Below are positions 26,152-55,412 of a DNA stretch of 64,000 nt, in pieces; position 1 is the stretch's first letter; every line of letters begins with the position of its first letter. This DNA is from Gordius albopunctatus (Eukaryota), in contig OZ193910.1 of NCBI GenBank assembly GCA_964276515.1, positions 1,426,001 to 1,490,000 on the forward strand, written 5' to 3'. The translations under genes and the position numbers were made by a program. The notes under the pieces are model-generated. The model was not told the origin of the DNA, did not search any database, and saw nothing but the letters and a program-made list of their open reading frames with translations.

Positions 26152-26492
26152 ATAATTACCTTTTATCTTCTCTTCACCTGTTTTTATCATGCATTAGGTC
26201 TTAAAGTCGTAATGTATGTTTTGATAAGTTTCCTCCATCTTGATAGGGTAAGCGCCATGTTCTGATTTATTTTCTTCACTTTATATACATGCTCTTTACA
26301 CCTGAAAGAGGTAGTCCTCTTCCTATCTTCCCCGGTACCTCCATTTCTTGTACTTTTCGAGATTTACTTCATTCGTCTATGGTATTATCTAATTAGAATA
26401 GTGGTCCCTTTATGATTTGGATATCACTTTGTTATCATTCCTTCTTACTATATTTGAATACACATTATTTATACTCCTCCTTATTCTATTCC

Positions 26493-26771
26493 TAATAAAT
26501 GTGTAATACTGTTTATCCAACTGATTTCTTACTCGTACTAGGATGATGAAAAAATGTGAAAGGTAATGAGACCAAACTTTATTAATAATCCTTTTTTCGC
26601 TCACACAACGCGTGATAAACATATATATACGATAAATAATATCTCGCGTAATAAATAATATTATTGACGCTCTATAACAACGAGAGATCGAGAGACAACG
26701 ACCGTGTAAACTACAACGGGGTAGGGGGGAAGGGAAGGAGAAATAGAGAAGTGTAAACACCCTTCACAACA
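26493..26771 (-). repeat. 3' LTR of element A
   Basis: Follows the PPT; matches 32069-32347. Confidence 0.95.
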
Positions 26772-26929: not shown

Positions 26930-27676
26930 CTATTGTTCCCCACGCTGGTCCATATTTGCAGACCGGCGTACTACGTTCGACTCAACTGCCGAATCCGGTG
27001 GAGCCACCATTACAGGAGAAAGCAATAAAGCCTCCTCTTCCTGTAACGACAACGTTTCCACCTGACAGACAATTGTTGCCTCACCTGGCGCTACCACGCT
27101 CTGTTGCGACGCCACCGCGGACGACCGTATCAAGGTACTGTCACCCTGCAGCGCTACCGTCCCAACAACGTTCGCACCCGCCACTATTTCCGACGCGTCC
27201 ATTGCCTCAATGATACGCTCTACTACCGTACCTACGGCATTACCACCCTCCGGCGGTATCTGTGGGTTACATCTCAGCCCACGATGCCGACGATGACACC
27301 CATGACACCACCTCCGTGCAACACGACGTCGCCTGCCGCCATTCGTCGCCGGTGGGGCAGCTTCCGCGCCCCTCCGTACCTGGCGCCCAGCGGCTACGCC
27401 GCGTTGCGGATTCTCTTGAATCCTCGCTATCGGGATCCTCACTATCGGGGCGACGTTACGAGCCACTCCGCCACGTCGACCCATATTCACAAATCTTTCA
27501 CCCCCGGGTCGGATCTCTCTCCTCGCCTGAGGGTAGATTTGTTCATGGAAGTTGACCATGTGGGGCACACCGTCTGCACCCACCACAAACGACACGTGTA
27601 AATTGCTTGGGGCGTACAGTGGATCGATCGCCTGAACCACCACTTGTACTCGGCACCACGAAGCAATTATATCCAT
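26930..27676 (-). CDS. Element A ORF3: uncharacterised 248-aa accessory protein with an Arg-rich region and CX2CX3HX4C knuckle
   Basis: Open frame between the integrase tail and the PPT; AG acceptor abuts the ATG; homologous to ORF 54753-55238. Confidence 0.8.
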   Translation of the reverse strand: MDIIASWCRVQVVVQAIDPLYAPSNLHVSFVVGADGVPHMVNFHEQIYPQARREIRPGGERFVNMGRRGGVARNVAPIVRIPIARIQENPQRGVAAGRQVRRGAEAAPPATNGGRRRRVARRWCHGCHRRHRGLRCNPQIPPEGGNAVGTVVERIIEAMDASEIVAGANVVGTVALQGDSTLIRSSAVASQQSVVAPGEATIVCQVETLSLQEEEALLLSPVMVAPPDSAVESNVVRRSANMDQRGEQ

Positions 27677-27981
27677 CTAATATAACTAAAAACATTAGAC
27701 ATTATAACATATCCATATTAATATTTTATTCAAAACGCGGCCGCAATTGCTCTTCATGCCTCATAGCATGGTTATTTGCAGCCGTAAACTCCACGTCGTA
27801 AGCTTTAGAGCCCACGCGGGATTTAACTACCGCTTCGAGCCATTTTTCAGACCCGCCATAACCCCGGGCCCAAACTGCCTCATTAACCCGAAACCGGCCA
27901 ATGTCAGATACACGAGATGTCAACTCGCTATCTACGAACACATCGATCGGTATTCGCGGTATCCTATTTAAAAAAACCTTA

Positions 27982-30822
27982 CTAACCGGCGCGCGACACG
28001 GGAAACGAGGGGAAGCACCAAATGCCTTCTTTCTCCACCTTCTCGTTTTTTAACCATCGTTTAACTATCGCCACATGTCGCTCAGCCAGCCCGTTAGAAC
28101 TAGGATGATAGGGAGGCGTTAATACGTGACGTATGCCCCACCTATCGCAAAACGCTTTAAACTCGGCACTAGTAAACGCGGTACCATTATCTGACACCAC
28201 GCACTTCGGTATGCCAAAAGCGCCCATTAATTTTTCCAAAAAAACAATTACGCTTTTAGTAGATAGTTTCGACACCCGCTCGAATTCAACCCAACTCGAT
28301 GTCGCATCCACCAACAAAAGATATTGCTTAGAGTCAAAATCAAAAAAATCAAGGTGCACTCGATCCCACACATTATGTGCCTGAGGCCACCTCGCCTTTT
28401 TATCATGCCTGGGCATACTCGCATTCTTGTTACATGCAACGCATTTATGCCCATACATGCTTATATCTTTTCCCATCTTAGGCCACCAAACATATCTACG
28501 CGCCAAAACCTTCATTTTAGCCGTCCCAATATGTCCAGCATGCAATAAATTAAGAACCTGAGGACGTAACACTCGTGGAATCACTATGCGTTCACCCCGC
28601 AGAATGATACCGTTCTCAAAACAGAGTTCGTTCCTCACCCCACGGTAACCCACAGGAATCTCCTCGAGCGTCTCGCCGTCAATCAGGCATCTTGTAACTC
28701 GACTCAACTCCTCATCTTTACTAACCTCCTCTTTAAGGTTAACTGATGGGAAAGTTTCCGTTACAATATTGACCAAAAATTTATCACCTTCTAATTCCTT
28801 CTCAGGTAAGGTACCATTATCCTCACCTAAGCACGACAACGTATCAGGTAAATAATTCGTTGCCCCCTTTTTATACTCTAAGGTTACGTTAAAATTCCCC
28901 AAAAACAACAACCATTTCTGTAACCTAGGGCTAAGCAACAAACTATTGTTACACTTCGCGAACAGAGGAATTAGCGGTTTATGATCCGTAAAAACTTTAA
29001 AATCTCGACCAATAAGATACTCACGGCACTTTATTAACGCAAAAACCACGGCAAGAGCCTCCTTCTCGATAACTGAATAATTAAGCTCCGCCGCCGTTAA
29101 TTTACGCGAGAAAAATAGTATTGGCCGTTCTACGCCCATAACAATATGAAAGAGCATGCCACCTATACCGCTATTCGATGCGTCTACCGCTAGACCTATT
29201 GGCAGGTCACGATTAAAACACACCAAAACAGGATCGCTTCCTAACAAGTTCTTTAACTTATCGAAAGCTAACTGCTCCTTTTCGGCCCAAACAAAACGCA
29301 CATTACTCTGCGTCAGTCTATGCAAGGGAGCCGCCACCTCCGAACAATGTGGTATAAACTTGCGATAATACTTAACCGACCCCATGAAAGCCAAAACCTC
29401 TTTTTTACTAACCGGGGCCCGTATATTCTTAATCGCAGCCACCTTACTACCCAGAGGTCTAATTCTCCCACATGCGATAACATGCCCTAAAAAAGTAACT
29501 TCGGTAACCCCAATCATGCACTTTTTCCTGGTTAAACGTAATCCTCTCTCCTGGACGCGGTTCAGTACCGATTCTAGACGCATATCATGCTCTTGCATTG
29601 ACGCGCCCACAATCAGCACATCATCCAGGTAAAAGAACACGCCGTTCAAACCCTGGAAAACCGAGGCCATCGTCTTTTGGAAAACAGACGCCGAAATACT
29701 CAAGCCAAACGGCAAACGATTAAACGCAAACAACCCCAAAGGAGTATTTATCGTCATTAACCGTGCCGATCGAGCATTTAATCTGATCTGCAAATATGCC
29801 GATCTTAAATCAAGTTTTGAAAAATAACATGCGTTACTCAGGTTAGCTAAAATCTCCTCAACCCGCGGAATTGGGTACTTAATTTCCACCAACCACGGAT
29901 TAAGTGTAACCCGGAAATCTACACACAGACGAAGCGAACCGTCGCTCTTCTTAACCGGAACCAGAGGGGTCGCCCACTCACTATAATCGACGGGCGAAAC
30001 TATCCCCTGATCAACCCAGTCCCGAAGCACGGCATTAACTTCGTCCCGCCAAATAAACGGAATACGCCTATTCGGGCAAAACTTAGGACAGGCACCTCGT
30101 TTAAGCAGCACATCGTACTCATACCCCTTTAAACATCCTAAACCTTCCGAAAAAACTTCGGCGTAGCGCGTCACTAAATTACGCAAATTAGATTGCCATT
30201 CGCCCAGGTCGCCCAAACACTTACACTCACCCGAAGGTGTCACACCTGCAGCACCCGAAGGTGTCAAGCCCGCAGGCGTCCCGATGTTTATCATCGCACA
30301 CGACTTAGTCGCTTGCTTGGTACTCGGAGGCTCAATATTACATATCATCGCACTCCCCCCTGGGCTTACTTTACGACTACGCTTTAACTTCAACTCCGGG
30401 GTAGGTACTTCTAACGTGTCACATAACCCGAACCACCTAACACGAGGGCCTATCACTTGCAACCAATCCCAGCCCATTAAAGGGGCGATATTAGCTGCCG
30501 TAATAAAAATAGGTAAATTACACCTCGTGCCGCCAGCCACCACCTCCATACAGGCCTTCCCTACTAATTGGACAGACGCACCATCTAACTGGCGCGCATT
30601 AAAAAGGGAATGGGATATCTTTTTAGAGGGCCAAAATAACTTAAAATGCTTTAATGAAATTAAACTAACACAAGCGCCGGAATCGAGTATAAAATTAATT
30701 AACGCACCTTCCACCCACACTTTTGATGTGGGCAGTTGTGTACCAAATAATAAACGGGGCAAAGCGCTTGTTAAATTAAACGTTACAATGGAGCTGGATG
30801 AATTAGGTACGTTGACATCTAG
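27982..30822 (-). CDS. pol: Element A pol (protease, reverse transcriptase, RNase H, integrase)
   Basis: ILDSGA protease motif; LCVDFR, KLDLRSAY and YLDD RT motifs; VDAS, EKEALA and TDHKPL RNase H motifs; HHCC (HAGH...CVAC) and D,D,E integrase (HLDF, SDNG, AERHV). Frame is open from the ORF1 stop. The integrase C-terminal tail (27726-~27990) is in a shifted frame. Confidence 0.97.
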   Translation of the reverse strand, partial: LDVNVPNSSSSIVTFNLTSALPRLLFGTQLPTSKVWVEGALINFILDSGACVSLISLKHFKLFWPSKKISHSLFNARQLDGASVQLVGKACMEVVAGGTRCNLPIFITAANIAPLMGWDWLQVIGPRVRWFGLCDTLEVPTPELKLKRSRKVSPGGSAMICNIEPPSTKQATKSCAMINIGTPAGLTPSGAAGVTPSGECKCLGDLGEWQSNLRNLVTRYAEVFSEGLGCLKGYEYDVLLKRGACPKFCPNRRIPFIWRDEVNAVLRDWVDQGIVSPVDYSEWATPLVPVKKSDGSLRLCVDFRVTLNPWLVEIKYPIPRVEEILANLSNACYFSKLDLRSAYLQIRLNARSARLMTINTPLGLFAFNRLPFGLSISASVFQKTMASVFQGLNGVFFYLDDVLIVGASMQEHDMRLESVLNRVQERGLRLTRKKCMIGVTEVTFLGHVIACGRIRPLGSKVAAIKNIRAPVSKKEVLAFMGSVKYYRKFIPHCSEVAAPLHRLTQSNVRFVWAEKEQLAFDKLKNLLGSDPVLVCFNRDLPIGLAVDASNSGIGGMLFHIVMGVERPILFFSRKLTAAELNYSVIEKEALAVVFALIKCREYLIGRDFKVFTDHKPLIPLFAKCNNSLLLSPRLQKWLLFLGNFNVTLEYKKGATNYLPDTLSCLGEDNGTLPEKELEGDKFLVNIVTETFPSVNLKEEVSKDEELSRVTRCLIDGETLEEIPVGYRGVRNELCFENGIILRGERIVIPRVLRPQVLNLLHAGHIGTAKMKVLARRYVWWPKMGKDISMYGHKCVACNKNASMPRHDKKARWPQAHNVWDRVHLDFFDFDSKQYLLLVDATSSWVEFERVSKLSTKSVIVFLEKLMGAFGIPKCVVSDNGTAFTSAEFKAFCDRWGIRHVLTPPYHPSSNGLAERHVAIVKRWLKNEKVEKEGIWCFPSFPVSRAG

Positions 30823-31326
30823 TCAACGCACCCCCGCTCCACTAGCAGTCATCGCGGAAGGCAGGCTACACCCGCACGAAGTTGAAACACCCTTATTAAA
30901 ATTATTTCCCCTCTCACTATCCCTGTTCATATTGCCATTACAAAAAGCATTCTGAGAGGGATGCGAAACATTATTACCCGCATAATTCCTGTCATCAAAA
31001 TTAGCCCTATTAAATTTATCCCTATAACCATCTGGCAGTGGTCTAGAATATCTCCCATCTCTGCCATTATCCCTGTTATCAAAACTTTGCCTAATTCTGC
31101 CTTTGAACATCCTTCCTGCTTTCTTATTACAATATCTAACCATATGTGGTCCCCCACAGTGAAAGCATTTTATCGCTTGTTTTACTACATTTACCCTAAT
31201 GCTTAAACACCACATCTTCCACAAAGCAGCTATTAAAACGATTAATAAAACCAGGACTAACCAGTTCGCTCTAATAATATCCACATATAAGTCCACCCTC
31301 TGTGTCGTTTTAAAAAATGATAACAT
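30823..31326 (-). CDS. Element A ORF1 (gag position): predicted TM helix + CX2CX3HX4C knuckle + Arg/Asn/Gly-rich tail, 167 aa, no recognisable capsid domain
   Basis: First ATG at 31326, with an in-frame TAA shortly upstream. Hydrophobic WLVLVLLIVLIAALWKMWCL at ~31263-31204; CFHCGGPHMVRYC at 31167-31129. Confidence 0.8.
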   Translation of the reverse strand: MLSFFKTTQRVDLYVDIIRANWLVLVLLIVLIAALWKMWCLSIRVNVVKQAIKCFHCGGPHMVRYCNKKAGRMFKGRIRQSFDNRDNGRDGRYSRPLPDGYRDKFNRANFDDRNYAGNNVSHPSQNAFCNGNMNRDSERGNNFNKGVSTSCGCSLPSAMTASGAGVR

Positions 31327-32068
31327 ATCTGCTACACAGCTTAACAAATTAACGCTAGTAAAAAAGTTAAATGCTTACTTTAATCGCCTGCAATTAATGC
31401 AATATCCCACAATAGAAAAATTAAACCCTAATCGAAATAAAAAAACTATGGCAAATATATAAATATTACTCTGCAAATTAATTAATGCACGCGCAATCTT
31501 TAAAACAATGTAAGATATACGATACCTTTACTACAACTTGGTTAATTGTTCAAAACTTATAATGTTACCAATATCAAATTACATCAAAATCAATATACAA
31601 CAAGAACAAATTGTAACATATAAATTAATTTGAGGCCAAAATATTGCACAATTTAATCAAATAGCAAAATAGTACGTATCACTAAATTAAATCGAAGCCG
31701 AAATATTAAAAAATTCAAACTAATGGCAAAATTAGTAAATGTTACCAAAACTTTTCAAAGATAATATATTGCACCCCTAAATCTAATAGCAAAATTGTGA
31801 GTTATATTTAAACTAATTCAAAGATAAAATTATTAAAAAATTACGTAAATACCAAATATGCATGTATTTATCAACCCACTTGAAGTAAACTATATATATA
31901 TCAGCGTGATCTAAAACTAATTTGAATCAAGTAAATAGCATAATAAAATTCTTACAATAAACAGCCTGAAAAATTTAATTGTAAGAAGAAAATATCCAAA
32001 AAGCATCAAAAAAATCAGAAATATTACATTATTCATTAAACAAAGAATATTAAATTAGCTATCACCAT

Positions 32069-32347
32069 TAATAAATGTGTAATACTGTTTATCCAACTGA
32101 TTTCTTACTCGTACTAGGATGATGAAAAAATGTGAAAGGTAATGAGACCAAACTTTATTAATAATCCTTTTTTCGCTCACACAACGCGTGATAAACATAT
32201 ATATACGATAAATAATATCTCGCGTAATAAATAATATTATTGACGCTCTATAACAACGAGAGATCGAGAGACAACGACCGTGTAAACTACAACGGGGTAG
32301 GGGGGAAGGGAAGGAGAAATAGAGAAGTGTAAACACCCTTCACAACA
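32069..32347 (-). repeat. 5' LTR of element A
   Basis: Precedes the TGG-initiated PBS; matches 26493-26771. Confidence 0.95.
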
Positions 32348-32499
32348 ATTCCCAATCATTATAATTTGAATAGCCCCCAACTACCTTACGAGTTATTCAT
32401 ATTAAACTCTTTACAATGGTATATAAGCTAATGCTTAACGATAGAGAGTATCTTTGGTTTTATACAAATAAAGTAGGCTCAAACCCCTACAAGTCTCCC

Positions 32500-33360
32500 T
32501 TCTTAGAAATATGCCCATACCACCTTGGGCGATTTTCGTGAGTCATGGCCGCCATAGGTTGAATACCCATTTTTGTCATGAGAAGGTCATAATGCCATAT
32601 CGTCGAGTTTCGTATACCCTATCCATCGTATTATTCTCATCTCTGTGGCTTGTAATAGCTTTTCTTCCGTGGTGTTGAATGCCCATGTTTCACTTCCATA
32701 GAGTAAAACCGGTCTTGCGATGGATTTTCAAGCTTTGCTCTTCAACCATATTGGCATTTTTTGTTCCACATTACACTCCCTCTTGATGTAGCATCGAGCC
32801 GAGGTATGTAAACCTGTCTATTTTTGGATACTTTAGATGGCCATCCAGCGATGAGGCGCCTGTAACGTTCATCTACATGTATCCGTTTTTCGATCGTTGA
32901 CCTTTAAACCATATTCAGCTAATCGCTTTGACCACTTTTAGGTTCTTTCGAATACTTTCTCTTTTGTCTCTTCGCACAGTAGCATATAGCATACACCATG
33001 GCGATAATTTTTGAATGTCTCTCGTTATTATGTCCATAATTATATGAAATAAAAAGCGACTTAGAACAGATCCTTGATGTAATTCAATTATAATGCGAAA
33101 GATTTAGATTCTCTAACTGTCGTCTTAACGCAAGAATTAAAGGCTTTTTAAATAGATTTAATAAGTCGAATATATGCGTCAGGGATATTTTGTTTTCTCA
33201 AGCATCATCAGATTAAATCGCAAGGGACCGTGTCATAAGCTTTCTTTAAGTGGACAAAGACCATATGTAGGTGTCTTCTCTTTTCACCATATTTACTAAT
33301 TTTTAGTCTTAGTGCGAAGATTAGGTCGATTGTGGATTTTCCGGCCACAAATATAGGGTT
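32500..33360 (-). mobile_element. Degenerate RTE-like non-LTR (LINE) reverse transcriptase fragment
   Basis: GKSTIDLIFALR...LHMVFVHLKKAYDTVP, LHQGSVLS and PVLLYGSETWA motifs, with stops and frameshifts. Confidence 0.8.
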
Positions 33361-35638
33361 GTCAGGAATGGCATCCTCTGACACCACCCGCAAGGCTTCA
33401 GTTGATTGAAAACTCAGCAGTTTGCACGTCTCTTTTGGGCCCCAGTCGCTTAAATTGGTTGGCATATGACGTGCGCTTAAAATTGCAGAAGAAAGAAAGA
33501 ACTCAATCGAATCTCCAGATTTATAGAATTTATTTCCTTTAGGTTCAAATCGTAGTCCAACCACGCCAAACGTTGAAGGAATAAATGGGAAGAAGGAATA
33601 TATTCACGAATAAGAGATAACCATCACGGACAACAATTTATTACCAAGGATAGATCACAAGTGGCGAAATAGCGATAAAACAATGGAAACATAAAAATAA
33701 TATATCTTCACGAGGAATAACAAAGTATAAAATAATATACAAAGGTAATCTCACAATTTTATACGCAATATTTATATTAACCAATATCATTTATTTTTAT
33801 CTAAAGTAAAATGCATGTAATATATCATCACATAGAAAAGATAATAAAAAAGCCAGGCACTATCTTGACGGGCCTTAATTTAACTTAATATGATAGATAC
33901 CTTTTAAGTAACCTATGGAAAAAATAGAAATGAGTGAAATTAATTCTTCTTGTCAATTTTAAGATAATTATAACCAACTACGGTGATAAACTTCTCTGAA
34001 TTACATTTATAAAGCAATATAAGGACGGCCAAACTATTCTTATAAACCTGCAACCGTCAATATTATTATAAATACCTTAGATATTTTCAGCATTCACTTG
34101 TCGCCCTAACCCGAGATTCGTAAAGTAAAATATTAATTTTTCTTACAAGCCATATATTAGTTAGAATAAAAATTACAATTAGTTTATGTTTACCTAACGC
34201 AACTAGCCTATACCATTCATTAGATCAAGGGCTTGACTTAAATACGCTCCTGCTCATCCCGATATAACGGAGCTCAACTACGCTTATGCGATATATAATC
34301 TAAAGTTAGATTAACGAATTCGTCAAATCCTATTATGAAATTATACTATTTTTAAATATGAAATAACTGCTAAAGAATTAAAATTATCATTCTGCTTCCT
34401 TTATATTTACAGTATGGATTTTGAGATGAACAAATTTATTCTTGATAGCATATTAGGTATTATCTTAATTTATTTAATGAATTTCTTATGACTCTTATGT
34501 AAGTGTCTTTGCCAAAAATGATATAAGTTTATCACGTGCAATAATTTTAATTTTATAATAGATCTTGATGAAACTCTCTTGCTAGAATATTGGGTATCAT
34601 TATAATTTTAATAAATTTCTTATAATTCTTTTGTAAGTGTCTTCTTTGCAAAAATAATGATATATGTTTAACGGTGCAATAGTTTTATAATTGGCCTTGG
34701 TGAAACTCCTTTTATAATAATTAATCCCTCAATGAATACTTAGCGTGTAGTGTTTTTAGTCTGCGTAGTTAGAGCATACTTCCCTTCAAGTACAATATGT
34801 ATAGTTTTTTAGGTCCTGGAGCAACTCATTTTCTACACCTAATCATAACACAACCATCAAAGCATAAAACATTATAATAGCTCACAGTCTTGAAAAATAT
34901 AATTCCTGAAGAAAAATATATATTAAAGGAAAACTAACCACTTAATTTATCCACCTCTTTATTTCGCTTATCCTACAAAGAAGTCATTTTCATAATAATT
35001 GAAGTATAAACGAAAATTTTGAGACAAGATATAGGGTTGAAAGGTAATTTATTATTTGCGCTTTGTCCCTTAATAATTTGAAATTAAAGCAAAGTACCAC
35101 TTTAGAAAATATTTTACATTTATATTTTTAATGTTTTTAATTAAAAACATGAAATACATAATAATATAATAAAAGAACAATGTGACTTTACAACATTTAA
35201 TAACTCACCTTAATAATATTTTAAACAATTTATAAGAATCTTGTGTGTAATAAGGCCAATGATTATATTTGGGAAAAGCTAGACTCCCGTAGACATAAGC
35301 GTATCCAGGATTGCCTCAAGGCAGGGGTTTACACTAATTAAGGGGGGTGGGGTTAATTTTGTGTCAAAAAGTTTTTGATTAAACAAAAACTAATTAAAAT
35401 TAGATAAATTCAATATCTACGATGGGTATTAGGTTAAAAACCCATTAATAATAGGTTCAGAGACACAAATTGCTAAGAGTTCCTTCCAATTTTTCTGTTT
35501 GCGTTTTTGGGGCAATGTTTGAATTAAACACTTGCATGGGTCTTTTTTGCCCACCAGTACGAAAAATTGTCCCGCCTCGGGACTGTTAAAGTGAAATTAT
35601 AAGCTCGTCATTTTTTGCAAAGCACCGGTGTAGCCTAC

Positions 35639-38600
35639 TGTAACGAAGTGGCCGGCTGGTAGAACCCTAAGCTCCCGTATACTAGGCTCCCGTATAACAC
35701 TAACTCCGATTCTAAACCAAGAGACTAAGTCAAAAGATAGAGACTGTTTTATTAGGTGGATAAGGCTTTATATACACATAGCGAAAGACATATATAAAAG
35801 TAGTAATCAATTAAGAGATAATGTACGGTGTAAACTAAGGTATATTCAAATGGCTAAGCGTATATTCAATTATCTGTGACCGCGCTCAAGTATAGGAAAA
35901 ACGCGTGTATTCAAATTGCAACCTTAAATGCGGCTACACTACACTTCTCCTTCCTTTAAGCGGAACCTTGAGGATATCTGACAGTTGGCACCGATACTCT
36001 TTTATAGGAAAGTATGAAATCGCTTTGACCAACAAGCGCGAGCCAGGTGGTTTGGTTTACCACACCTATAACATATTATTTTCTTGTTGTTCCTAAAGGT
36101 GCTAAGATTAAGAACATTTCTTAAAAAAAATATTATAATTATTAGTCAAATTCCTAGTTGGATATTTTTTATCCAGATGTAATGTCCAAATCGTTAAACT
36201 ATCAATATCCTTTGGATAAATTTGACTTTTTAATTCACTCAGGTGGGTCGTGACTATATAAGCTAGCAACACCAATTTTCTCAAATCTCCGTCAATTTTT
36301 CTAAGACGAAAGATTAATTCCAATTGATATAAATAATCATCAATATTTTTAGTTGAATCATATGGTGTAATATCTCTAACCCAACCAAGAGAATTCCCGG
36401 AATCTGATTCGAATTTTGAACCAAACCAAGAGAATTTCCGGAATCTGATTCCAATTTTGAATTCACATCGGACTTCTTCTTGGTCATTTTGATTAACAAA
36501 GGCTAGCGGCACTCATTATGGAGTATCCCATCCTCGTCGCCAAATGTAACGAAGTGGCCGGCTGGTAGAACCCTAAGCTCCCGTATACTAGGCTCCCGTA
36601 TAACACTAACTCCGATTCTAAACCAAGAGACTAAGTCAAAAGACAGAGACTGTTTTATTAGGTGGATAAGGCTTTATATACACATAGCGAAAGACATATA
36701 TAAAAGTAGTAATCAATTAAGAGATAATGTACGGTGTAAACTAAGGTATATTCAAATGGCTAAGCGTATATTCAATTATCTGTGACCGCGCTCAAGTATA
36801 GGAAAAACGCGTGTATTCAAATTGCAACCTTAAATGCGGCTACACTACACTTCTCCTTCCTTTAAGCGGAACCTTGAGGATATCTGACAGTTGGCACCGA
36901 TACTCTTTTATGGGAAAGTATGAAATCGCTTTAACAAGCGCGAGCCAGGTGGTTTGGTTTACCACACCTATAACATATTATTTTCTTGTTGTTCCTAAAG
37001 GTGCTAAGATTAAGAACATTTCTTAAAAAAAATATTATAATTATTAGTCAAATTCCTAGTTGGATATTTTTTATCCAGATGTAATGTCCAAATCGTTAAA
37101 CTATCAATATCCTTTGGATAAATTTGACTTTTTAATTCACTCAGGTGGGTCGTGCCTATATAAGCTAGCAACACCAATTTTCTCAAATCTCCGTCAATTT
37201 TTCTAAGACGAAAGATTAATTCCAATTGATATAAATAATCATCAATATTTTTAGTTGAATCATATGGTGTAATATCTCTAACCCAACCAAGAGAATTCCC
37301 GGAATCTGATTCGAATTTTGAACCAAACCAAGAGAATTTCCGGAATCTGATTCCAATTTTGAATTCACATCGGACTTCTTCTTGGTCATTTTGATTAACA
37401 AAGGCTAGCGGCACTCATTATGGAGTATCCCATCCTCGTCGCCAAATGTAACGAAGTTGCCGATCACATCCTCGTCGCCAAATGTAACGAAGTGGCCGAC
37501 TGGTAGAACCCTAAGCTCCCGTATACTAAGCTCCCGTATAACACTAACTCCGATTCTAAACCAAGAGACTAAGTCAAAAGACAGAGACTGTTTTATTAGG
37601 TGGATAAGGCTTTATATACACATAGCGAAAGACATATATAAAAGTAGTAATCAATTAAGAGATAATGTACGGTGTAAACTAAGGTATATTCAAATGGCTA
37701 AGCGTATATTCAATTATCTGTGACCGCGCTCAAGTATAGGAAAAACGCGTGTATTCAAATTGCAACCTTAAATGCGGCTACACTACACTTCTCCTTCCTT
37801 TAAGCGGAACCTTGAGGATATCTGACAGTTGGCACCGATACTCTTTTATAGGAAAGTATGAAATCGCTTTGACCAACAAGCGCGAGCCAGGTGGTTTGGT
37901 TTACCACACCTATAACATATTATTTTCTTGTTGTTCCTAAAGGTGCTAATATTAAAAACATTTCTTAAAAAAAATATTATAATTATTAGTCAAATTCCTA
38001 GTTGGATATTTTTTATCCAGATGTAATGTCCAAATCGTTAAACTATCAATATCCTTTGGATAAATTTGACTTTTTAATTCACTCAGGTGGGTCGTGCCTA
38101 TATAAGCTAGCAACACCAATTTTCTCAAATCTCCGTCAATTTTTCTAAGACGAAAGATTAATTCCAATTGATATAAATAATCATCAATATTTTTAGTTGA
38201 ATCATATGGTGTAATATCTCTAACCCAACCAAGAGAATTCCCGGAATCTGATTCGAATTTTGAACCAAACCAAGAGAATTTCCGGAATCTGATTCCAATT
38301 TTGAATTCACATCGGACTTCTTCTTGGTCATTTTGATTAACAAAGGCTAGCGGCACTCATTATGGAGTATCCCATCCTCGTCGCCAAATGTAACGAAGTT
38401 GCCGATCACATCCTCGTCGCCAAATGTAACGAAGTGGCCGACTGGTAGAACCCTAAGCTCCCGTATACTAAGCTCCCGTATAACACTAACTCCGATTCTA
38501 AACCAAGAGACTAAGTCAAAAGACAGAGACTGTTTTATTAGGTGGATAAGGCTTTATATACACATAGCGAAAGACATATATAAAAGTAGTAATCAATTAA

Positions 38601-41600
38601 GAGATAATGTACGGTGTAAACTAAGGTATATTCAAATGGCTAAGCGTATATTCAATTATCTGTGACCGCGCTCAAGTATAGGAAAAACGCGTGTATTCAA
38701 ATTGCAACCTTAAATGCGGCTACACTACACTTCTCCTTCCTTTAAGCGGAACCTTGAGGATATCTGACAGTTGGCACCGATACTCTTTTATAGGAAAGTA
38801 TGAAATCGCTTTGACCAACAAGCGCGAGCCAGGTGGTTTGGTTTACCACACCTATAACATATTATTTTCTTGTTGTTCCTAAAGGTGCTAAGATTAAAAA
38901 CATTTCTTAAAAAAAATATTATAATTATTAGTCAAATTCCTAGTTGGATATTTTTTATCCAGATGTAATGTCCAAATCGTTAAACTATCAATATCCTTTG
39001 GATAAATTTGACTTTTTAATTCACTCAGGTGGGTCGTGCCTATATAAGCTAGCAACACCAATTTTCTCAAATCTCCGTCAATTTTTCTAAGACGAAAGAT
39101 TAATTCCAATTGATATAAATAATCATCAATATTTTTAGTTGAATCATATGGTGTAATATCTCTAACCCAACCAAGAGAATTCCCGGAATCTGATTCGAAT
39201 TTTGAACCAAACCAAGAGAATTTCCGGAATCTGATTCCAATTTTGAATTCACATCGGACTTCTTCTTGGTCATTTTGATTAACAAAGGCTAGCGGCACTC
39301 ATTATGGAGTATCCCATCCTCGTCGCCAAATGTAACGAAGTTGCCGATCACATCCTCGTCGCCAAATGTAACGAAGTGGCCGACTGGTAGAACCCTAAGC
39401 TCCCGTATACTAAGCTCCCGTATAACACTAACTCCGATTCTAAACCAAGAGACTAAGTCAAAAGACAGAGACTGTTTTATTAGGTGGATAAGGCTTTATA
39501 TACACATAGCGAAAGACATATATAAAAGTAGTAATCAATTAAGAGATAATGTACGGTGTAAACTAAGGTATATTCAAATGGCTAAGCGTATATTCAATTA
39601 TCTGTGACCGCGCTCAAGTATAGGAAAAACGCGTGTATTCAAATTGCAACCTTAAATGCGGCTACACTACACTTCTCCTTCCTTTAAGCGGAACCTTGAG
39701 GATATCTGACAGTTGGCACCGATACTCTTTTATAGGAAAGTATGAAATCGCTTTGACCAACAAGCGCGAGCCAGGTGGTTTGGTTTACCACACCTATAAC
39801 ATATTATTTTCTTGTTGTTCCTAAAGGTGCTAATATTAAAAACATTTCTTAAAAAAAATATTATAATTATTAGTCAAATTCCTAGTTGGATATTTTTTAT
39901 CCAGATGTAATGTCCAAATCGTTAAACTATCAATATCCTTTGGATAAATTTGACTTTTTAATTCACTCAGGTGGGTCGTGCCTATATAAGCTAGCAACAC
40001 CAATTTTCTCAAATCTCCGTCAATTTTTCTAAGACGAAAGATTAATTCCAATTGATATAAATAATCATCAATATTTTTAGTTGAATCATATGGTGTAATA
40101 TCTCTAACCCAACCAAGAGAATTCCCGGAATCTGATTCGAATTTTGAACCAAACCAAGAGAATTTCCGGAATCTGATTCCAATTTTGAATTCACATCGGA
40201 CTTCTTCTTGGTCATTTTGATTAACAAAGGCTAGCGGCACTCATTATGGAGTATCCCATCCTCGTCGCCAAATGTAACGAAGTTGCCGATCACATCCTCG
40301 TCGCCAAATGTAACGAAGTGGCCGACTGGTAGAACCCTAAGCTCCCGTATACTAAGCTCCCGTATAACACTAACTCCGATTCTAAACCAAGAGACTAAGT
40401 CAAAAGACAGAGACTGTTTTATTAGGTGGATAAGGCTTTATATACACATAGCGAAAGACATATATAAAAGTAGTAATCAATTAAGAGATAATGTACGGTG
40501 TAAACTAAGGTATATTCAAATGGCTAAGCGTATATTCAATTATCTGTGACCGCGCTCAAGTATAGGAAAAACGCGTGTATTCAAATTGCAACCTTAAATG
40601 CGGCTACACTACACTTCTCCTTCCTTTAAGCGGAACCTTGAGGATATCTGACAGTTGGCACCGATACTCTTTTATAGGAAAGTATGAAATCGCTTTGACC
40701 AACAAGCGCGAGCCAGGTGGTTTGGTTTACCACACCTATAACATATTATTTTCTTGTTGTTCCTAAAGGTGCTAAGATTAAAAACATTTCTTAAAAAAAA
40801 TATTATAATTATTAGTCAAATTCCTAGTTGGATATTTTTTATCCAGATGTAATGTCCAAATCGTTAAACTATCAATATCCTTTGGATAAATTTGACTTTT
40901 TAATTCACTCAGGTGGGTCGTGCCTATATAAGCTAGCAACACCAATTTTCTCAAATCTCCGTCAATTTTTCTAAGACGAAAGATTAATTCCAATTGATAT
41001 AAATAATCATCAATATTTTTAGTTGAATCATATGGTGTAATATCTCTAACCCAACCAAGAGAATTCCCGGAATCTGATTCGAATTTTGAACCAAACCAAG
41101 AGAATTTCCGGAATCTGATTCCAATTTTGAATTCACATCGGACTTCTTCTTGGTCATTTTGATTAACAAAGGCTAGCGGCACTCATTATGGAGTATCCCA
41201 TCCTCGTCGCCAAATGTAACGAAGTTGCCGATCACATCCTCGTCGCCAAATGTAACGAAGTGGCCGACTGGTAGAACCCTAAGCTCCCGTATACTAAGCT
41301 CCCGTATAACACTAACTCCGATTCTAAACCAAGAGACTAAGTCAAAAGACAGAGACTGTTTTATTAGGTGGATAAGGCTTTATATACACATAGCGAAAGA
41401 CATATATAAAAGTAGTAATCAATTAAGAGATAATGTACGGTGTAAACTAAGGTATATTCAAATGGCTAAGCGTATATTCAATTATCTGTGACCGCGCTCA
41501 AGTATAGGAAAAACGCGTGTATTCAAATTGCAACCTTAAATGCGGCTACACTACACTTCTCCTTCCTTTAAGCGGAACCTTGAGGATATCTGACAGTTGG

Positions 41601-44301
41601 CACCGATACTCTTTTATAGGAAAGTATGAAATCGCTTTGACCAACAAGCGCGAGCCAGGTGGTTTGGTTTACCACACCTATAACATATTATTTTCTTGTT
41701 GTTCCTAAAGGTGCTAAGATTAAAAACATTTCTTAAAAAAAATATTATAATTATTAGTCAAATTCCTAGTTGGATATTTTTTATCCAGATGTAATGTCCA
41801 AATCGTTAAACTATCAATATCCTTTGGATAAATTTGACTTTTTAATTCACTCAGGTGGGTCGTGCCTATATAAGCTAGCAACACCAATTTTCTCAAATCT
41901 CCGTCAATTTTTCTAAGACGAAAGATTAATTCCAATTGATATAAATAATCATCAATATTTTTAGTTGAATCATATGGTGTAATATCTCTAACCCAACCAA
42001 GAGAATTCCCGGAATCTGATTCGAATTTTGAACCAAACCAAGAGAATTTCCGGAATCTGATTCCAATTTTGAATTCACATCGGACTTCTTCTTGGTCATT
42101 TTGATTAACAAAGGCTAGCGGCACTCATTATGGAGTATCCCATCCTCGTCGCCAAATGTAACGAAGTTGCCGATCACATCCTCGTCGCCAAATGTAACGA
42201 AGTGGCCGACTGGTAGAACCCTAAGCTCCCGTATACTAAGCTCCCGTATAACACTAACTCCGATTCTAAACCAAGAGACTAAGTCAAAAGACAGAGACTG
42301 TTTTATTAGGTGGATAAGGCTTTATATACACATAGCGAAAGACATATATAAAAGTAGTAATCAATTAAGAGATAATGTACGGTGTAAACTAAGGTATATT
42401 CAAATGGCTAAGCGTATATTCAATTATCTGTGACCGCGCTCAAGTATAGGAAAAACGCGTGTATTCAAATTGCAACCTTAAATGCGGCTACACTACACTT
42501 CTCCTTCCTTTAAGCGGAACCTTGAGGATATCTGACAGTTGGCACCGATACTCTTTTATAGGAAAGTATGAAATCGCTTTGACCAACAAGCGCGAGCCAG
42601 GTGGTTTGGTTTACCACACCTATAACATATTATTTTCTTGTTGTTCCTAAAGGTGCTAAGATTAAAAACATTTCTTAAAAAAAATATTATAATTATTAGT
42701 CAAATTCCTAGTTGGATATTTTTTATCCAGATGTAATGTCCAAATCGTTAAACTATCAATATCCTTTGGATAAATTTGACTTTTTAATTCACTCAGGTGG
42801 GTCGTGCCTATATAAGCTAGCAACACCAATTTTCTCAAATCTCCGTCAATTTTTCTAAGACGAAAGATTAATTCCAATTGATATAAATAATCATCAATAT
42901 TTTTAGTTGAATCATATGGTGTAATATCTCTAACCCAACCAAGAGAATTCCCGGAATCTGATTCGAATTTTGAACCAAACCAAGAGAATTTCCGGAATCT
43001 GATTCCAATTTTGAATTCACATCGGACTTCTTCTTGGTCATTTTGATTAACAAAGGCTAGCGGCACTCATTATGGAGTATCCCATCCTCGTCGCCAAATG
43101 TAACGAAGTTGCCGATCACATCCTCGTCGCCAAATGTAACGAAGTGGCCGACTGGTAGAACCCTAAGCTCCCGTATACTAAGCTCCCGTATAACACTAAC
43201 TCCGATTCTAAACCAAGAGACTAAGTCAAAAGACAGAGACTGTTTTATTAGGTGGATAAGGCTTTATATACACATAGCGAAAGACATATATAAAAGTAGT
43301 AATCAATTAAGAGATAATGTACGGTGTAAACTAAGGTATATTCAAATGGCTAAGCGTATATTCAATTATCTGTGACCGCGCTCAAGTATAGGAAAAACGC
43401 GTGTATTCAAATTGCAACCTTAAATGCGGCTACACTACACTTCTCCTTCCTTTAAGCGGAACCTTGAGGATATCTGACAGTTGGCACCGATACTCTTTTA
43501 TAGGAAAGTATGAAATCGCTTTGACCAACAAGCGCGAGCCAGGTGGTTTGGTTTACCACACCTATAACATATTATTTTCTTGTTGTTCCTAAAGGTGCTA
43601 ATATTAAAAACATTTCTTAAAAAAAATATTATAATTATTAGACAAATTCCTAGTTGGATATTTTTTATCCAGATGTAATGTCCAAATCGTTAAACTATCA
43701 ATATCCTTTGGATAAATTTGACTTTTTAATTCACTCAGGTGGGTCGTGCCTATATAAGCTAGCAACACCAATTTTCTCAAATCTCCGTCAATTTTTCTAA
43801 GACGAAAGATTAATTCCAATTGATATAAATAATCATCAATATTTTTAGTTGAATCATATGGTGTAATATCTCTAACCCAACCAAGAGAATTCCCGGAATC
43901 TGATTCGAATTTTGAACCAAACCAAGAGAATTTCCGGAATCTGATTCCAATTTTGAATTCACATCGGACTTCTTCTTGGTCATTTTGATTAACAAAGGCT
44001 AGCGGCACTCATTATGGAGTATCCCATCCTCGTCGCCAAATGTAACGAAGTTGCCGATCACATCCTCGTCGCCAAATGTAACGAAGTGGCCGACTGGTAG
44101 AACCCTAAGCTCCCGTATACTAAGCTCCCGTATAACACTAACTCCGATTCTAAACCAAGAGACTAAGTCAAAAGACAGAGACTGTTTTATTAGGTGGATA
44201 AGGCTTTATATACACATAGCGAAAGACATGAAAGTAGTAATCAATTACGAGATAATGTACGCTGTAAACTAAGGTATATTCAAATGGCTAAGTGTATATT
44301 C
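35639..44301 (-). repeat. Tandem array of a non-autonomous mini LTR retroelement: 10 LTRs (last truncated) alternating with 9 internal segments; unit 906, 938, then 942 bp
   Basis: 305-bp LTR TGTAAC...CTACA (first copy 35639-35943). PPT AAAGGAAGGAGAAG on -. PBS TGGCGACGAGGATGGGAT matches the tRNA-Ser(GCU) 3' end as I recall it. The internal segment carries a gag N-terminal fragment (IDDYLYQLELIF...VLLAYIG) similar to the gag at 50396-50832. ORF periodicity is 942 bp. Confidence 0.95.
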
Positions 44302-46455
44302 TTATAGGCGCCTTTTTGAACTTTTTTTGTCAATGCTTAAACAATCATTTATTTATATAGTGAAAATGTTCAATATTAATCATTATAAATATATTAGTCT
44401 TTTAATAGTTACTTCTGAATTATCAGCTGTTCGGCAGTCTATGGTATTATTAGTCTATGGTTATGATCCTCTTTATTTAAAAAAACTTTTCAAATCCTAT
44501 CATTTATAAATGACAAGATCTATAAATGAATATTTATGCGTTCATTAAACATTGATTTATTTTAATATCCCACCTCTTTAAGACAGTATATAAACAAGCA
44601 CTAACGCTTAAAAAATCATTTATAATTATTTATTACGATACTCTTCTTTACTCTCATCTCTATAAATTCTTATATAGATAACCTTATATCAATTAGGTAG
44701 TAAGTTTGTTCCATGTAGTGTATGTAATATTCAATAACTAAACACATTAAAAAGTATAAGTCTTTTTTTAATATTCATATCTTTTTTATATATTCGCAAT
44801 AATACATATATTATATATATGAATATGAAAACTCATTACAATTGGTAATTTTTTATTAATAACAAATCTTATATAAAATTTAATTCATTCGCTAGCTAAT
44901 CTATATCATATTATATTGCCAATTTAAAATGTATATATACATACATTTAGTACATATATAGATATATTTAATATCTATATGTTTTATAATATAATATTAT
45001 ATATATTGAAATAACATTAGCACATTTAGTTATTAAATTAAGGCCAATTATTATATCATTTAAATAATTTCACCTATAACTTATTATTATAATTAAGAAA
45101 TATTTTAAAATATCTATTTCTTATAACCTTACTATATAATGCATTACTTTATTCAATTATATTTTTTTTTAAATATTTAAGATATATGTCTTATTTGTGT
45201 CGTAAGTGAGCTGCGTTATATTTCAGTTGAACTGGATCCTCGGACCACTTCTGTTCAAAATCTAATATATGCAAAAACGAATATTGGCAAAATCTAATAT
45301 AAGCAAAACCAAATATGTGCGAAATCCCCGAAATAAATTTTAACGTATTCTCCCGCATTTTATACAAATCCCAGCTGAAATGTTTTCCACTCTTCCGTCT
45401 GAAATTTTTACATTTACGAATTTTTATAATGCAAAGATATAGCGTACCCAATGCAAGCACTAATGCTGTAAAGTATTCCCAGGGCCTCAATATTAGGTCA
45501 GAAAGTAATAGATAACATGATTTTTTATATGTTTGGAAATTTTTACAATCTTTATATTATGTTGCTTAGGCCTCCCACGTATAATACTACCCAATGCAAG
45601 CACTAATCCTGCAAGATATTCCCAGGGCCTCACTATTAGGCCAGAAAGTAATAGATAACATGATTTTTTGTATGTTTGGAAATTTTTTGTTTTAAATTTT
45701 TACAATCTTAATTTTAAAATTTTTCAGGCCAGCTGGACTCTTCTCTACGGGATGCCTTGCTCCTGTTCGATGCCACAAACCAAATGCGTGAAGATGGTGA
45801 AGGTAAATAATTTTTAAAGCCTATATAATATTTCATTTCATAGTGGCATCGCCAGAGTATATCCGTTCTCAAAAGGGAGGCCCGATTTTGTATTATTTTT
45901 CATATCTATATATGAAGAGGAGTATAACCAAAGGCAAGACCTGTTATGGATGCCGCAGCTCCACCTGTCCTGCTATCGCCACTAAATTTAATGGGCAAGT
46001 CGTTGCCAAACGGCAGCACAATCATGAACCTCCTAGGGAAGAGTATGAAGCCCTGGTGACCAAGTCGAGACTTAAAGAAGCTGTTGTTGCTAACCCTACT
46101 GTGAAAATTAGTAGGATTTATCATCAGACTCTAAGTTCTCGACTTCGTGAGGTTCGTGACTTGTCTGACTTCCCATTGGCTACTCCCCCTTTGAAGGCGG
46201 TACGATACACGATGAAGAGGGCTCGGCCTAACAGGCAACCCATTCCCTCTGATAGAAGCCGGATCCGTTTGACGGAGGCCCAAACCGTGGCTCCTAATAA
46301 CGAGCCGTTCCTATTATGGAATGACAATAACGACCTTCGCTCCTCAAGGTTTTGTGCCAGGTACCTTCCATTTATATGGATGGTACCTTTAAAGTCTGTC
46401 CTACACACTTTTATCAAGTATATATATCGAATGCCTAATTAATGTATATAATATA

Positions 46456-47995: not shown

Positions 47996-48473
47996 TGTGG
48001 TAATTCGATTGATTTATCGCTTGATTTATTCGATTACTTGAACCGAAGCTATTATGATTGAGGATTGTTGTTGTTGGTGTTGATGTTGTTGTGTATGACT
48101 GAGGAGATGCACCGTGGTATAAAAGAACAGAAAGCAATATATACACTCATTCACTTACTCACTTACACTCTCTTCCCCACTCATTCACAAATTCACTAAT
48201 TCATTATTCACTACCATTTTGTACAATCGCTCACTTACTTACTTTTCACCTATGTTAACGTTGCCAATTCGCAGTTAATACGCCTATAACATTAGTCATT
48301 TAATTGTAATTATACCGTGTAAATTATATCTTGTTCGATTATCCTTGGAAATTATGTAAGTATTGATCCTGTAACATCTTTAAATAAAGTAGATATATTT
48401 ATTAGCTTAAAACAGTTTATATTAGTAGTAGATAATAAAGAGTTGGAATAGATTATAACAGGAGGTTATAACA
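47996..48473. mobile_element. Solo LTR (478 bp)
   Basis: TG...CA termini and 5-bp TSD AAAAG (47991-47995, 48474-48478); removing it restores the MULE exon/intron junction IKG|GT. Confidence 0.85.
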
Positions 48474-49884
48474 AAAAGGTAATATTAAACATGTCATGTT
48501 TAAATCGTATATTCAAGGTTGTCTATTCCATTTCTCCAGAGCCTTGTTAAGACGGGTTGACAAGCTGGAGTTTAAAAAAGCATATAATAATAATATTTTG
48601 ATAAGGAAATTGGTAAGAAGAATCGCAGCCTTTCCATTTTTAAGATATGAAGATGTCTTTTACGTTTATGAAGCATTTCGGAATGATCTTTTTGTCTCCC
48701 AACATGCGAAATTACGATCGTTTTTTAATTACGTTTATAAATCTTGGGTGAACCCCTCTGCGACATTTTCCTATGAAATGTGGCAGAGGTATGAGGCTGT
48801 TGGTCCTAGGACCAACAACCACCTTGAGGGGTATCATAAAGGTTTAAAGTCCCTTATTGGGAGCCGCACCCCGATATATACTTGTATTTCATTTTTAATG
48901 CAAAATAATGAAAAAACTCTGATCAATCTTCTACAAATTGATCAGGGTAATACACTATATTCGATTAATAAATGCGTTCGCGAAAAAAATGCACATATAC
49001 AAACATTACTCGCTTTATATTCTGATACTTCGCGGTATTATGATGTTTTTGATTACGTTGACAATATCGCGAAATTATTATCTTTTAATTATGATTCGCG
49101 GTATTGGAATTTTTTTAATATGGATATATCGCGCGCGTTTTTCAATAATGACACTGATAATGTCGACGGTTATAATAGGGACACTAGTGACTATACAGAC
49201 ACTAGTGACTCAGAATAAAATTTAATAATACTTATGTGTTCGTGATTGCTTCAGCCTTTTTGTAACCTTTTATTAAATACGATATTTCATGGAATTTGAA
49301 TATTCAATTTTACCTTAGGTGAAATAATTGCAGATTATTTATCTATTCAAAACAGTAAAAAAAGTTAGTTACCTTAATAAATTTACTGATGATTTTATCT
49401 ATTACGGTGACATTAAATACTCTATTGTACTTTCAAAATCATTGCTCAAAAATCTCGAGCCCTCTTAGCTTAACTTGTATAATTATTCAAACTGATTGAC
49501 CACCATCTTAAAATTACCGCATCACAGGATGAGTAACTGCGAAATTCAAATATGCTTTGGTAATATTTACTATTCCATCAGAACTCATTCTAAATCTAAA
49601 ATATTGTAATATTTAACAATGTTATGGATAATATGCAATAAATATATAAAATTATTCACATACCCTAAGAGGCAACCATACTTAGGTAAATGATTGCCAA
49701 ATTTTTAAATTTTTTGCAAAAATATATAACATTTACTACATTTATGTATTTTATAATACCAAATATATTTCATACATATTAATTAACACTTAATACCTCA
49801 AAAGTAAATCATGCAAATGATAAAATACTCAATAATTCATTAAAATCTAACGATCAATAAAAGTCGAGATCTCGCCGAAAATAT

Positions 49885-54403: not shown

Positions 54404-54530
54404 ATCATTATTGAATTCTTTTCGTATCGATAATTATAGTCTAATTTAACGCGAAAAAACATTGGCCTCCCTTTTTTGGGGAGGACCTAACAGCAAGAGT
54501 TCTAAATAAATAAAATTTTAAAATTGGAGA

Positions 54531-55412
54531 CGTTTGCCAGTTGGTATTGAATTTTTTAATCGTAATTTACGTTTTCCGCCTGATTTTTTGCTAGATAGCA
54601 AATTTAAACATCAATCAGGCAAGACTAAATATAATATTAACGATTTTGTGTGGTCGAAAAATTATTTAGGTCAACCTAGATGGGAACTATCTAAAGTTGT
54701 TGATCACGTAGGTAATAAAATTTAGCCTAATGTTTATTTTTTTGCATTGTAGATGGACGTCATTACTTCATGGTGTATTGTCCGAATTGTCGTAGAGAGA
54801 TTGGCCGGAGTGCGTCCTCCGTGCCCTCTCCATATTTCATTTGTTATCGGGATGGACGTCATCCCAAGAATAACGTTTTTTGCAGAGCTTCCTGTGAATG
54901 GGGGTCAGGGGATGCCCCAGGGTGCTAATGGTCGTGTGTATCGGCAGGCACCTATGCGTCTTAACAGAGGAAGTGGTGGTCGACGGCACCCACGAGGTGT
55001 TAATCGTTTGCGGTGTGAAATATGTCAGCGATGGCATCGTTTACCGATGTGTCCGTCGTCGATTGTTAACAATAATTTAAATACCTTGCCTGTTGGAGGG
55101 CAAGTAATCATGCCTGTTGGAGGGCAGGTGGTTACACCCCAGGTACAAACCAGTGGGTTGGCAACAACTATCATTGGTAGTGCTTTGGTCACCCCGTTAG
55201 CTGCTATGACTTTGGCAGGTGATCTGCAAAGGCAGTGATCAGCTATTAAAAAGGGGAGGTGTGGCATATGTCGATATTAAATTATATGCCGAATTAAGTT
55301 ATTTTTATCTTGGTTAAACGTTATAAGCCCTCTGACAAAATAAAATTAAATGCTAGTAATAAAATCCTCCACTAAAATTATAATGTGTTATGGAAATCCG
55401 TTTTTTTTATAA
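54531..55412 (+). mobile_element. 3' remnant of a second ORF3-bearing Gypsy (element C): integrase tail, ORF3, PPT, LTR
   Basis: 54534-54725 (FFNRNLR...DFVWSKNYLGQPRW...VGNK) aligns with the element A tail (FLNRIPR...EAVWARGYGGSEKW...VGSK). PPT AAAAAGGGGAGG at 55248-55259, then TGTGG at 55260. Right boundary approximate. Confidence 0.8.
54753..55238 (+). CDS. Element C ORF3 (161 aa), homolog of element A ORF3
   Basis: MDVITSWCIVRIVV...LHISFVIGMDVIP vs MDIIASWCRVQVVV...LHVSFVVGADGVP; CEICQRWHRLPMC vs CHGCHRRHRGLRC. Confidence 0.8.
   Translation: MDVITSWCIVRIVVERLAGVRPPCPLHISFVIGMDVIPRITFFAELPVNGGQGMPQGANGRVYRQAPMRLNRGSGGRRHPRGVNRLRCEICQRWHRLPMCPSSIVNNNLNTLPVGGQVIMPVGGQVVTPQVQTSGLATTIIGSALVTPLAAMTLAGDLQRQ

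Follow-up and report, generated by a model that had tools for sequence, protein, structure and literature searches.

A conserved non-env gene downstream of pol in a young Mag-like LTR retrotransposon without a recognisable capsid

Results

Element 1 is a complete Mag-like LTR retrotransposon with a third open reading frame

The 64,000-nucleotide stretch of Gordius albopunctatus DNA that we analysed (contig OZ193910.1; hereafter the window) carries on its minus strand a complete LTR retrotransposon of 5.86 kb, termed element 1, which belongs to Ty3/gypsy and is Mag-like (Table 1). Its leader opens with a TGG primer-site-like motif at 32067, contains three degenerate repeats of 62-63 nt each and is followed by ORF1, by pol and, between the end of the integrase and the polypurine tract with the 3' LTR, by a further open reading frame, ORF3. 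An in-frame stop lies directly before the ORF3 ATG, and ORF3 is a separate frame behind pol, not part of a Gag polyprotein. Element 1 is inserted in a very high-copy repeat (26234-26490 and 32350-33000), the uninterrupted form of which is present in both public DNA runs used below.

Table 1. Features of element 1 and of the element carrying the second ORF3, in window coordinates.
Feature	Position	Strand	Details
5' LTR	32069..32347	-	279 bp; 100% identity to 3' LTR; ends TG...TA, not TG...CA
3' LTR	26493..26771	-	279 bp
Polypurine tract of element 1	26782-26772	-	just ahead of 3' LTR
Target duplication, 5 bp	32352-32348 and 26492-26488		flanks of element 1
Leader	31327..32068	-	742 nt; 47% T; 24% GC; all three frames hold stops
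Candidate LTR donor CGA|GTAAGA	32103..32111	-	GT at 32108, in 5' LTR; would skip 8 upstream leader ATGs
Candidate leader donor AAA|GTAAGC	31373..31381	-	GT at 31378-31377; join would read AAAATG
ORF1	30823..31326	-	167 aa; predicted membrane helix at about 17-41; one CX2CX3HX4C knuckle; Asn/Arg/Gly-rich tail
ORF1-pol junction UGA-CUAG	30819-30825	-	ORF1 in frame with pol
pol	27726..30822	-	protease, RT, RNase H, integrase (Pfam); gypsy order PR-RT-RH-IN
Predicted 3' splice site	27677..27698	-	branch-like CTAAT 27698-27694, T-rich tract, TAG abutting ATG
ORF3	26930..27676	-	248 codons; stop at 26930; ATG at 27676; lysine-free; 29 Arg
ORF3 N-terminal block	27542..27676	-	45 aa; 20/45 residues same as second copy; predicted three-stranded beta-meander
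ORF3 Arg/Gly-rich region	27308..27541	-	predicted disordered (pLDDT about 30); candidate RNA-binding / nuclear-localisation stretch
ORF3 CX2CX3HX4C knuckle	27269..27307	-	residues 124-136; spacing also in second copy and ORF1
ORF3 Val/Ala/acidic tail	26933..27130	-	residues 183-248; coding-like in window copy; no counterpart in second copy
Integrase C-terminal remnant, same element as second ORF3	54522..54725	+	z 17.8 vs element 1 integrase
Second ORF3 (ORF3b)	54753..55238	+	161 aa; lysine-free; CTAAT 54727-54731; AG 54751-54752
Downstream of second ORF3	55248-55259	+	polypurine tract, then LTR-like start

The best match of the element 1 pol was a Gordionus protein with 50% identity (568 proteins matched at E 1e-50), and the remaining matches were K02A2.6-like proteins with 33-43% identity plus two further Gordionus records. 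In a quick tree of 47 rows, comprising 45 of the 117 long-enough pol matches, element 1 and a fragment of its neighbour, the element 1 pol and two Gordionus proteins shared a long stem with an SH-aLRT of 100, a grouping that makes a horsehair worm the likely host. Because this tree, built without an outgroup, contained no named Mag reference, we use the wording 'Mag-like'. The short LTRs and the 5-bp target duplication are Mag-lineage traits and the leader repeats also fit, since short LTRs, a 5-bp duplication and 5'-leader repeats are tabulated for the Mag lineage in Culex (PMC3286476). A further Mag trait is a primer site for tRNA-Leu, -Ser or -Arg, for which the TGG motif at 32067 would be the candidate site.

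Family copies were judged from contigs of two public DNA runs, X1 and X2. In X1, long contigs covered element 1 in 30 of 30 bins at a depth of 3766-4649, compared with 128 for a flanking contig, which corresponds to roughly 30 copies. The family is young and multi-copy along its whole length, and the identical LTRs together with the high contig depth argue that it spread with its present layout. In the window copy, the pol reading frame is broken near 28.0 kb, within the C-terminal part of the integrase; the break is probably private to this copy because the run contigs differ from the window there.

ORF3 encodes an arginine-rich, lysine-free protein with a CCHC knuckle

ORF3 had been singled out in a preliminary description of this DNA, and all the motifs named there, namely CTAAT, AG, ATG, GGRRRRVARR, the knuckle, GTAAGC and the AAAATG join, could be read in the sequence together with their coordinates. 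Of the arginines of ORF3, 23 fall within residues 46-136, and GGRRRRVARR is present in the protein. Both ORF3 copies found in the window (see below) contain no lysine, whereas position-preserving shuffles predict 6.8 and 3.7 (P 0.0003 and 0.016, respectively); for contrast, the pol of element 1 has 62 Lys and 58 Arg. The knuckle spacing was borne out as identical to that of the ORF1 knuckle, as had been claimed, and 5 of 20 related Gags have a first knuckle with this spacing. As in Gag nucleocapsid domains, the CCHC knuckle of ORF3 has basic flanks; when aligned to a Gag profile, the knuckle scored an hhalign probability of 0.5% (E 0.13), the likeness being in spacing only. From this composition, ORF3 is predicted to bind RNA and to act on the element's own RNA.

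The preliminary description further held that ORF3 is not env-like, and hydropathy agrees: neither a signal peptide nor a membrane anchor was found, and the highest 19-residue Kyte-Doolittle mean was 1.22, without a membrane span, with the second copy reaching a borderline 1.68 near its C-terminus. Prediction of the N-terminal structure, which had been proposed as a check, gave poor models. For residues 1-60, AlphaFold2 placed strands at 8-18, 21-32 and 38-46, three antiparallel strands within residues 8-46; pLDDT was about 70 over residues 11-40, but the mean was only 60.5 and no fold match was obtained. The model of residues 1-140 (mean pLDDT 40.0) showed disorder up to the knuckle, and a three-copy complex of residues 1-50 scored 0.01.

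The Val/Ala-rich acidic tail had been presented as a feature of the protein. It is coding-like in the window copy, where G occupies codon position 1 versus position 2 in 29 versus 8 of 65 codons, but it is not conserved and is often out of frame. A one-base difference at 27130 (codon 183) puts the last 66 codons out of frame in many family copies: this state is found in the sole covering contig in X1 (depth 3766 of 3766) and accounts for 9612 of 45214 summed depth in X2, and the shifted frame would end within about a dozen codons. Since the window tail looks coding, it may be the older state; the out-of-frame tails suggest either that the tail is dispensable or that the subfamily, as it expands, is gradually losing the gene.

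A second, diverged ORF3 copy points to selection on the protein

A second ORF3 lies within a nested locus at 50233-55733. There, two copies of a unit of roughly 340 bp, bounded by TG...CA, lie inverted relative to each other (50233-50395 plus 54401-54530; 55414-55733); the first copy is broken by a 5'-truncated, decayed gag-pol and adjoins the fragment with the second ORF3. We considered whether ORF3b could be the third ORF of this gag-pol at 50.3-54.2 kb and rejected the possibility, as the integrase remnant upstream of ORF3b matches element 1 instead and scored z 2.6 against the integrase of the adjacent pol. The gag-pol moreover ends with its own polypurine tract and LTR-like start (54254) right after the integrase, and its pol has about 34% identity to that of element 1. 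The two ORF3 elements share the order integrase end, acceptor-like signal, ORF3, polypurine tract and LTR. ORF3 therefore marks a lineage: two sister elements carry it and the distant neighbour does not.

Conservation of a gene downstream of pol, as the preliminary description had put it, is strongly supported by the comparison of the two copies, which gave z 17.3, a score reached by 0 of 1000 shuffles. Over the gap-free first 45 codons, 23, 32 and 12 of 45 nucleotides are identical at codon positions 1, 2 and 3, respectively, and 15 of 18 identical residues other than Met and Trp are encoded by different codons. Of the six frames, the annotated one alone combines good conservation with an absence of stops in the two copies; the other five have far lower scores or contain stops. 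This codon-position pattern, with near-random third positions, is that of a protein kept for long under purifying selection. Conservation extends into the Arg/Gly-knuckle part (z 5.7) but is not significant beyond the knuckle (z 1.1), and the end of ORF3b corresponds to about residue 182 of ORF3. ORF3 is accordingly a genuine coding gene behind pol, conserved and unlike env. The ORF3 family as defined here comprises just two diverged copies, both within the 64-kb window.

Searches outside the window returned no relative. No ORF3 homolog was found among 3721 candidates at E 0.01 or among 5430 longer candidates at E 10. A profile of the two ORF3 copies, of the kind that the preliminary description had recommended building, likewise found no match among 1.84 billion representatives at E 0.001. 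Pfam contained no family for ORF3, the ESM Atlas yielded no usable match for either ORF3 or ORF1, and PDB sequences gave a single match at E 1.2. Of the pattern matches, 34 from metagenomes and 42 from viruses, none was confirmed, and fold searches with low-confidence query models found no match at E 0.001 (best Z 3.9). These blanks weigh little, because the two ORF3 copies score only 113-134 raw BLOSUM points against each other, which we estimate to be borderline at database scale, and because gene callers may skip transposon ORFs. Full-text literature searches retrieved neither a knuckle-bearing ORF3 nor a capsid-less membrane-anchored ORF1 in such elements; a repeat-library entry may exist, and the Gordionus genome preprint, in its available text, gives repeats in bulk only.

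Both ORF3 start codons abut an acceptor-like signal

The acceptor described as abutting the ORF3 ATG proved to be common to both copies: each has CTAAT, a T-rich tract and YAG immediately 5' of the ATG, despite the near-random third codon positions next door. The two strands of the window together have 2178 ATGs; YAG precedes 66 of them, and an additional CTRAY 12-35 nt upstream is found for 6, two of which are the ORF3 starts. The signal also fits the host, since a host gene in the window (56480-57750, plus strand) is open after removal of four short, AT-rich GT-AG introns (44-86 nt), one of which has a CTAAT similarly spaced from its AG. The gene presumably belongs with PDCD2-like proteins, which it resembles. 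Taken together, the signals make it likely that ORF3 is translated from a spliced subgenomic RNA.

Which donor would serve this splice is uncertain, with 31378 and 32108 as candidates. The preliminary description had called the leader donor strong; with a rough, generic matrix it ranks joint 6th of 461 GTs in element 1, so that 'strong' is fair though the site is not unique. Used alone, it would keep 8 leader ATGs in the message, and it has an alternative partner in the AG at 31330-31329, 2 nt 5' of the ORF1 ATG, which would give a 50-nt intron. An in-frame pol-ORF3 fusion via a short intron was rejected, as the only donor-like site near the acceptor of the second copy is out of frame.

Other acceptor-like sequences occur in the leader: TTGCAG lies 9 nt upstream of the leader donor (31379-31387, minus strand) and would define a 9-nt micro-exon, and the three leader repeats end in acceptor-like motifs.

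ORF1 has a predicted membrane helix and element 1 no recognisable capsid

ORF1 consists of a short N-terminal segment without Gly2, a hydrophobic helix, basic residues, the knuckle and the Asn/Arg/Gly tail. The helix has a KD19 of 2.66, and only 0.06% of 20000 shuffles were as hydrophobic; T occupies position 2 of its codons at a frequency of 0.51, compared with 0.30 and 0.25. Judged by this bias, the helix looks selected rather than decayed.

A Gag profile built from 20 N-terminal regions of related polyproteins found the capsid region of the neighbouring element with an E of about 2e-12, as well as knuckles in the tandem array described below. On element 1, the same profile found the ORF1 knuckle only (E 0.9) and no capsid, in agreement with hhalign, and Pfam gave no match. 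Element 1 thus appears to be without a recognisable Mag-type capsid, an unrecognisably remote fold in ORF1 being a possibility. ORF1 has one knuckle, as compared with two in 12 of the 20 related Gags. This layout seems to be that of the family rather than a defect of the window copy, because a long X1 contig spanning 30714-31400 differs by 5 substitutions and is free of gaps. We also considered, and rejected, a capsid encoded within the leader: stops occur in all frames and the profile found no match; multi-exon coding would be possible but would have only the length of the leader to draw on. Lack of a capsid in element 1 would favour a structural or packaging role for ORF3 over a merely accessory one, and ORF1 may be as novel as ORF3.

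The UGA-CUAG at the ORF1-pol junction is a known leaky-stop context (PMC4207609), for which retroviral readthrough provides a general precedent (PMC5009743). A hairpin 3' of the UGA is weak (z -2.07, matched in 9 of 200 shuffles). A resemblance between the N-terminal block of ORF3 and the ORF1 stretch before the knuckle (z 2.7; 17 of 1000 shuffles) did not extend to the second copy (z -0.5), and we regard it as unproven.

Other features of the window

A tandem, TRIM-like array occupies 35630-44301 on the minus strand and consists of about nine near-identical 942-bp units without pol. Each unit comprises an LTR-like part, TGGCGACGAG primer-site-like motifs (doubled in some units) and a truncated gag-like ORF, with a CX2CX4HX4C knuckle in a frame other than that of the gag-like ORF. 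The ORFs at 45807-46442 and 48472-49218 (plus strand) and 59932-60499 (minus strand) resemble fragments of Mutator-type transposases. A GC-rich frame of 244 codons at 1799-2533 (plus strand) is Pro/Ser/His-rich, has no Pfam match and is unrelated to ORF3.

Discussion

Extra ORFs behind pol are often called env by position. ORF3 resembles errantiviral and retroviral env in its location between pol and the 3' LTR and in its probable expression by splicing, but hydropathy reveals neither signal peptide nor membrane anchor in ORF3, which is much shorter and basic, and bears a knuckle. Non-env third ORFs are already known: bdelloid LTR elements encode ORF3s with a DEDDy exonuclease, a GDSL esterase or TM/coiled-coil segments (PMC5408684), and plant elements have additional ORFs (PMC7264820), although none of the bdelloid and plant types described in the available text of these studies is both knuckle-bearing and basic. 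ORF3 is a new non-env type, without a database relative in the searches made.

With the Mag lineage with K02A2.6-like pol, element 1 shares the PR-RT-RH-IN order, short LTRs, the 5-bp duplication, leader repeats and the CX2CX3HX4C spacing of the first knuckle (PMC3286476, as far as its available text goes). In contrast to element 1, that lineage has a detected capsid and two Gag knuckles, and is without the ORF1 membrane helix, the leaky-stop junction and the third ORF. The sORF2/FAST-like proteins of the MDG1 group resemble ORF1 in having a short N-terminal segment, one helix and basic residues after it, but they are 63-107 aa long, were N-myristoylated in a screen and stand beside an intact gag (bioRxiv 2025.03.14.642691, available text), whereas ORF1 has 167 aa, no Gly2 and a knuckle, and runs into pol. 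ORF3 itself was considered as such a single-pass fusogen of 63-107 aa and rejected, having 248 aa and no membrane span.

As to the role of ORF3, we tentatively prefer, with somewhat less than even confidence, that it is a detached, stand-alone nucleocapsid-like protein for the element's genomic RNA. A 5' donor, either in the LTR at 32108 or in the leader at 31378, would be joined to the AG before the ATG and give an abundant ORF3 mRNA. In the protein, the Arg/Gly region and the zinc knuckle would bind RNA, and the beta block would oligomerise or bind a partner. ORF1 would sit in the membrane with its knuckle facing the cytosol, and readthrough of the UGA would yield a minor ORF1-Pol product. 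Most of the RNA coating and of the chaperone work (primer annealing, strand transfer) in an ORF1-Pol particle would then fall to ORF3, whether or not other gypsy families of the genome lend a capsid. We favour this nucleocapsid-like role because no capsid Gag is recognisable in the family and a spliced message would yield the copy number that coating needs, and because foamy viruses package RNA through Gly/Arg regions that are poor in lysine (PMC3705263). The GR boxes of foamy virus Gag are, like ORF3, Gly/Arg-rich and lysine-poor, a likeness of composition only, and foamy Gag, as described in the available text of that source, differs in having a capsid and no Cys-His motifs. Against a nucleocapsid-like ORF3, ORF1 already has a knuckle, so that a second nucleocapsid could be redundant; the 5' part of the element with the second ORF3 is missing, so that ORF3 may predate capsid loss; and a nuclear regulator such as CERV would account equally well for Arg clusters combined with a Cys/His finger (PMC10309623). 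A bolder version, which we consider unlikely, is that this hairworm lineage of elements has done away with the capsid and divided Gag between a membrane-anchored ORF1 that carries Pol by stop readthrough and a spliced, lysine-free ORF3 that would assemble on RNA as a shell substitute, reverse transcription taking place in a membrane-bound ribonucleoprotein that may leave the cell in vesicles.

The nuclear regulator comes close behind in our estimate, at odds well below even. ORF3 would here be the early product of a fully spliced RNA and bind unspliced genomic RNA for export or protection, with HIV Rev as the functional model. With its intron-like leader, its several splice-like sites and the stop codon that separates ORF1 from pol in the same frame, the genomic RNA must escape splicing and decay. 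The gypsy element Cer1 of C. elegans encodes such a factor, CERV, a non-env accessory protein translated from a spliced mRNA, in which a Cys loop and an arginine are essential, the Cys-rich loop being putatively RNA-binding (PMC10309623); for ORF3, splicing is predicted, and its RRRR clusters might serve as a nuclear signal. CERV is, however, a protein of 517 aa with exons common with gag, a C4-type loop and three folded domains, in an element whose Gag has a capsid (PMC10309623), whereas ORF3 is a single 3' exon with a CCHC knuckle. A simple pattern for a leucine-rich export signal had 0 matches in both ORF3 copies, the export signal of CERV itself being only a candidate, and an export factor would leave the missing capsid unexplained. 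Sequence searches, and fold searches with low-confidence models, gave no hit to CERV or Rev, a blank of little weight for so divergent a protein.

Element 1 might also be an ordinary parasite of the BARE2 sort that borrows its capsid, ORF3 being the adaptor through which its RNA would be tied to a helper family's Gag. There is precedent for families with a defective gag and a competent pol that a helper packages (BARE2, PMC3735527), and capsid-coding gypsy elements are present in the window, but the capsid-coding neighbour is distant at about 34% pol identity and the ORF1 helix looks selected rather than decayed, and we judge this adaptor role quite unlikely. It seems improbable, too, that ORF3 is a counter-defence protein that binds small RNAs, dsRNA or a silencing factor and dampens host silencing. 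Viral silencing suppressors are commonly small, basic and equipped with a Cys/His motif, and the family has recently expanded, both of which count for such a role, but ORF3 matched no silencing suppressor or dsRNA-binding domain in sequence or fold and its knuckle has the spacing of Gag. Very improbable, finally, is that ORF3 is a now functionless piece acquired by capture or duplication: the searches found no homologs outside the window and its tail frame differs among copies, as would suit such a fragment, whereas the codon-position pattern, the frame-specific conservation and the conserved non-coding acceptor all speak against it.

LTR elements are thought to need a capsid. Here, protein-level constraint on ORF3 spans two distant elements, and a young family keeps pol without a recognisable capsid. 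Should ORF3 prove Rev-like, such a factor would have been invented a second time, independently of CERV, in a related group of animals. If it is true that ORF3 and a membrane-anchored ORF1 replace the capsid, this would be a new replication mode for an LTR element, and the need of a capsid for reverse transcription would become testable in a natural system.
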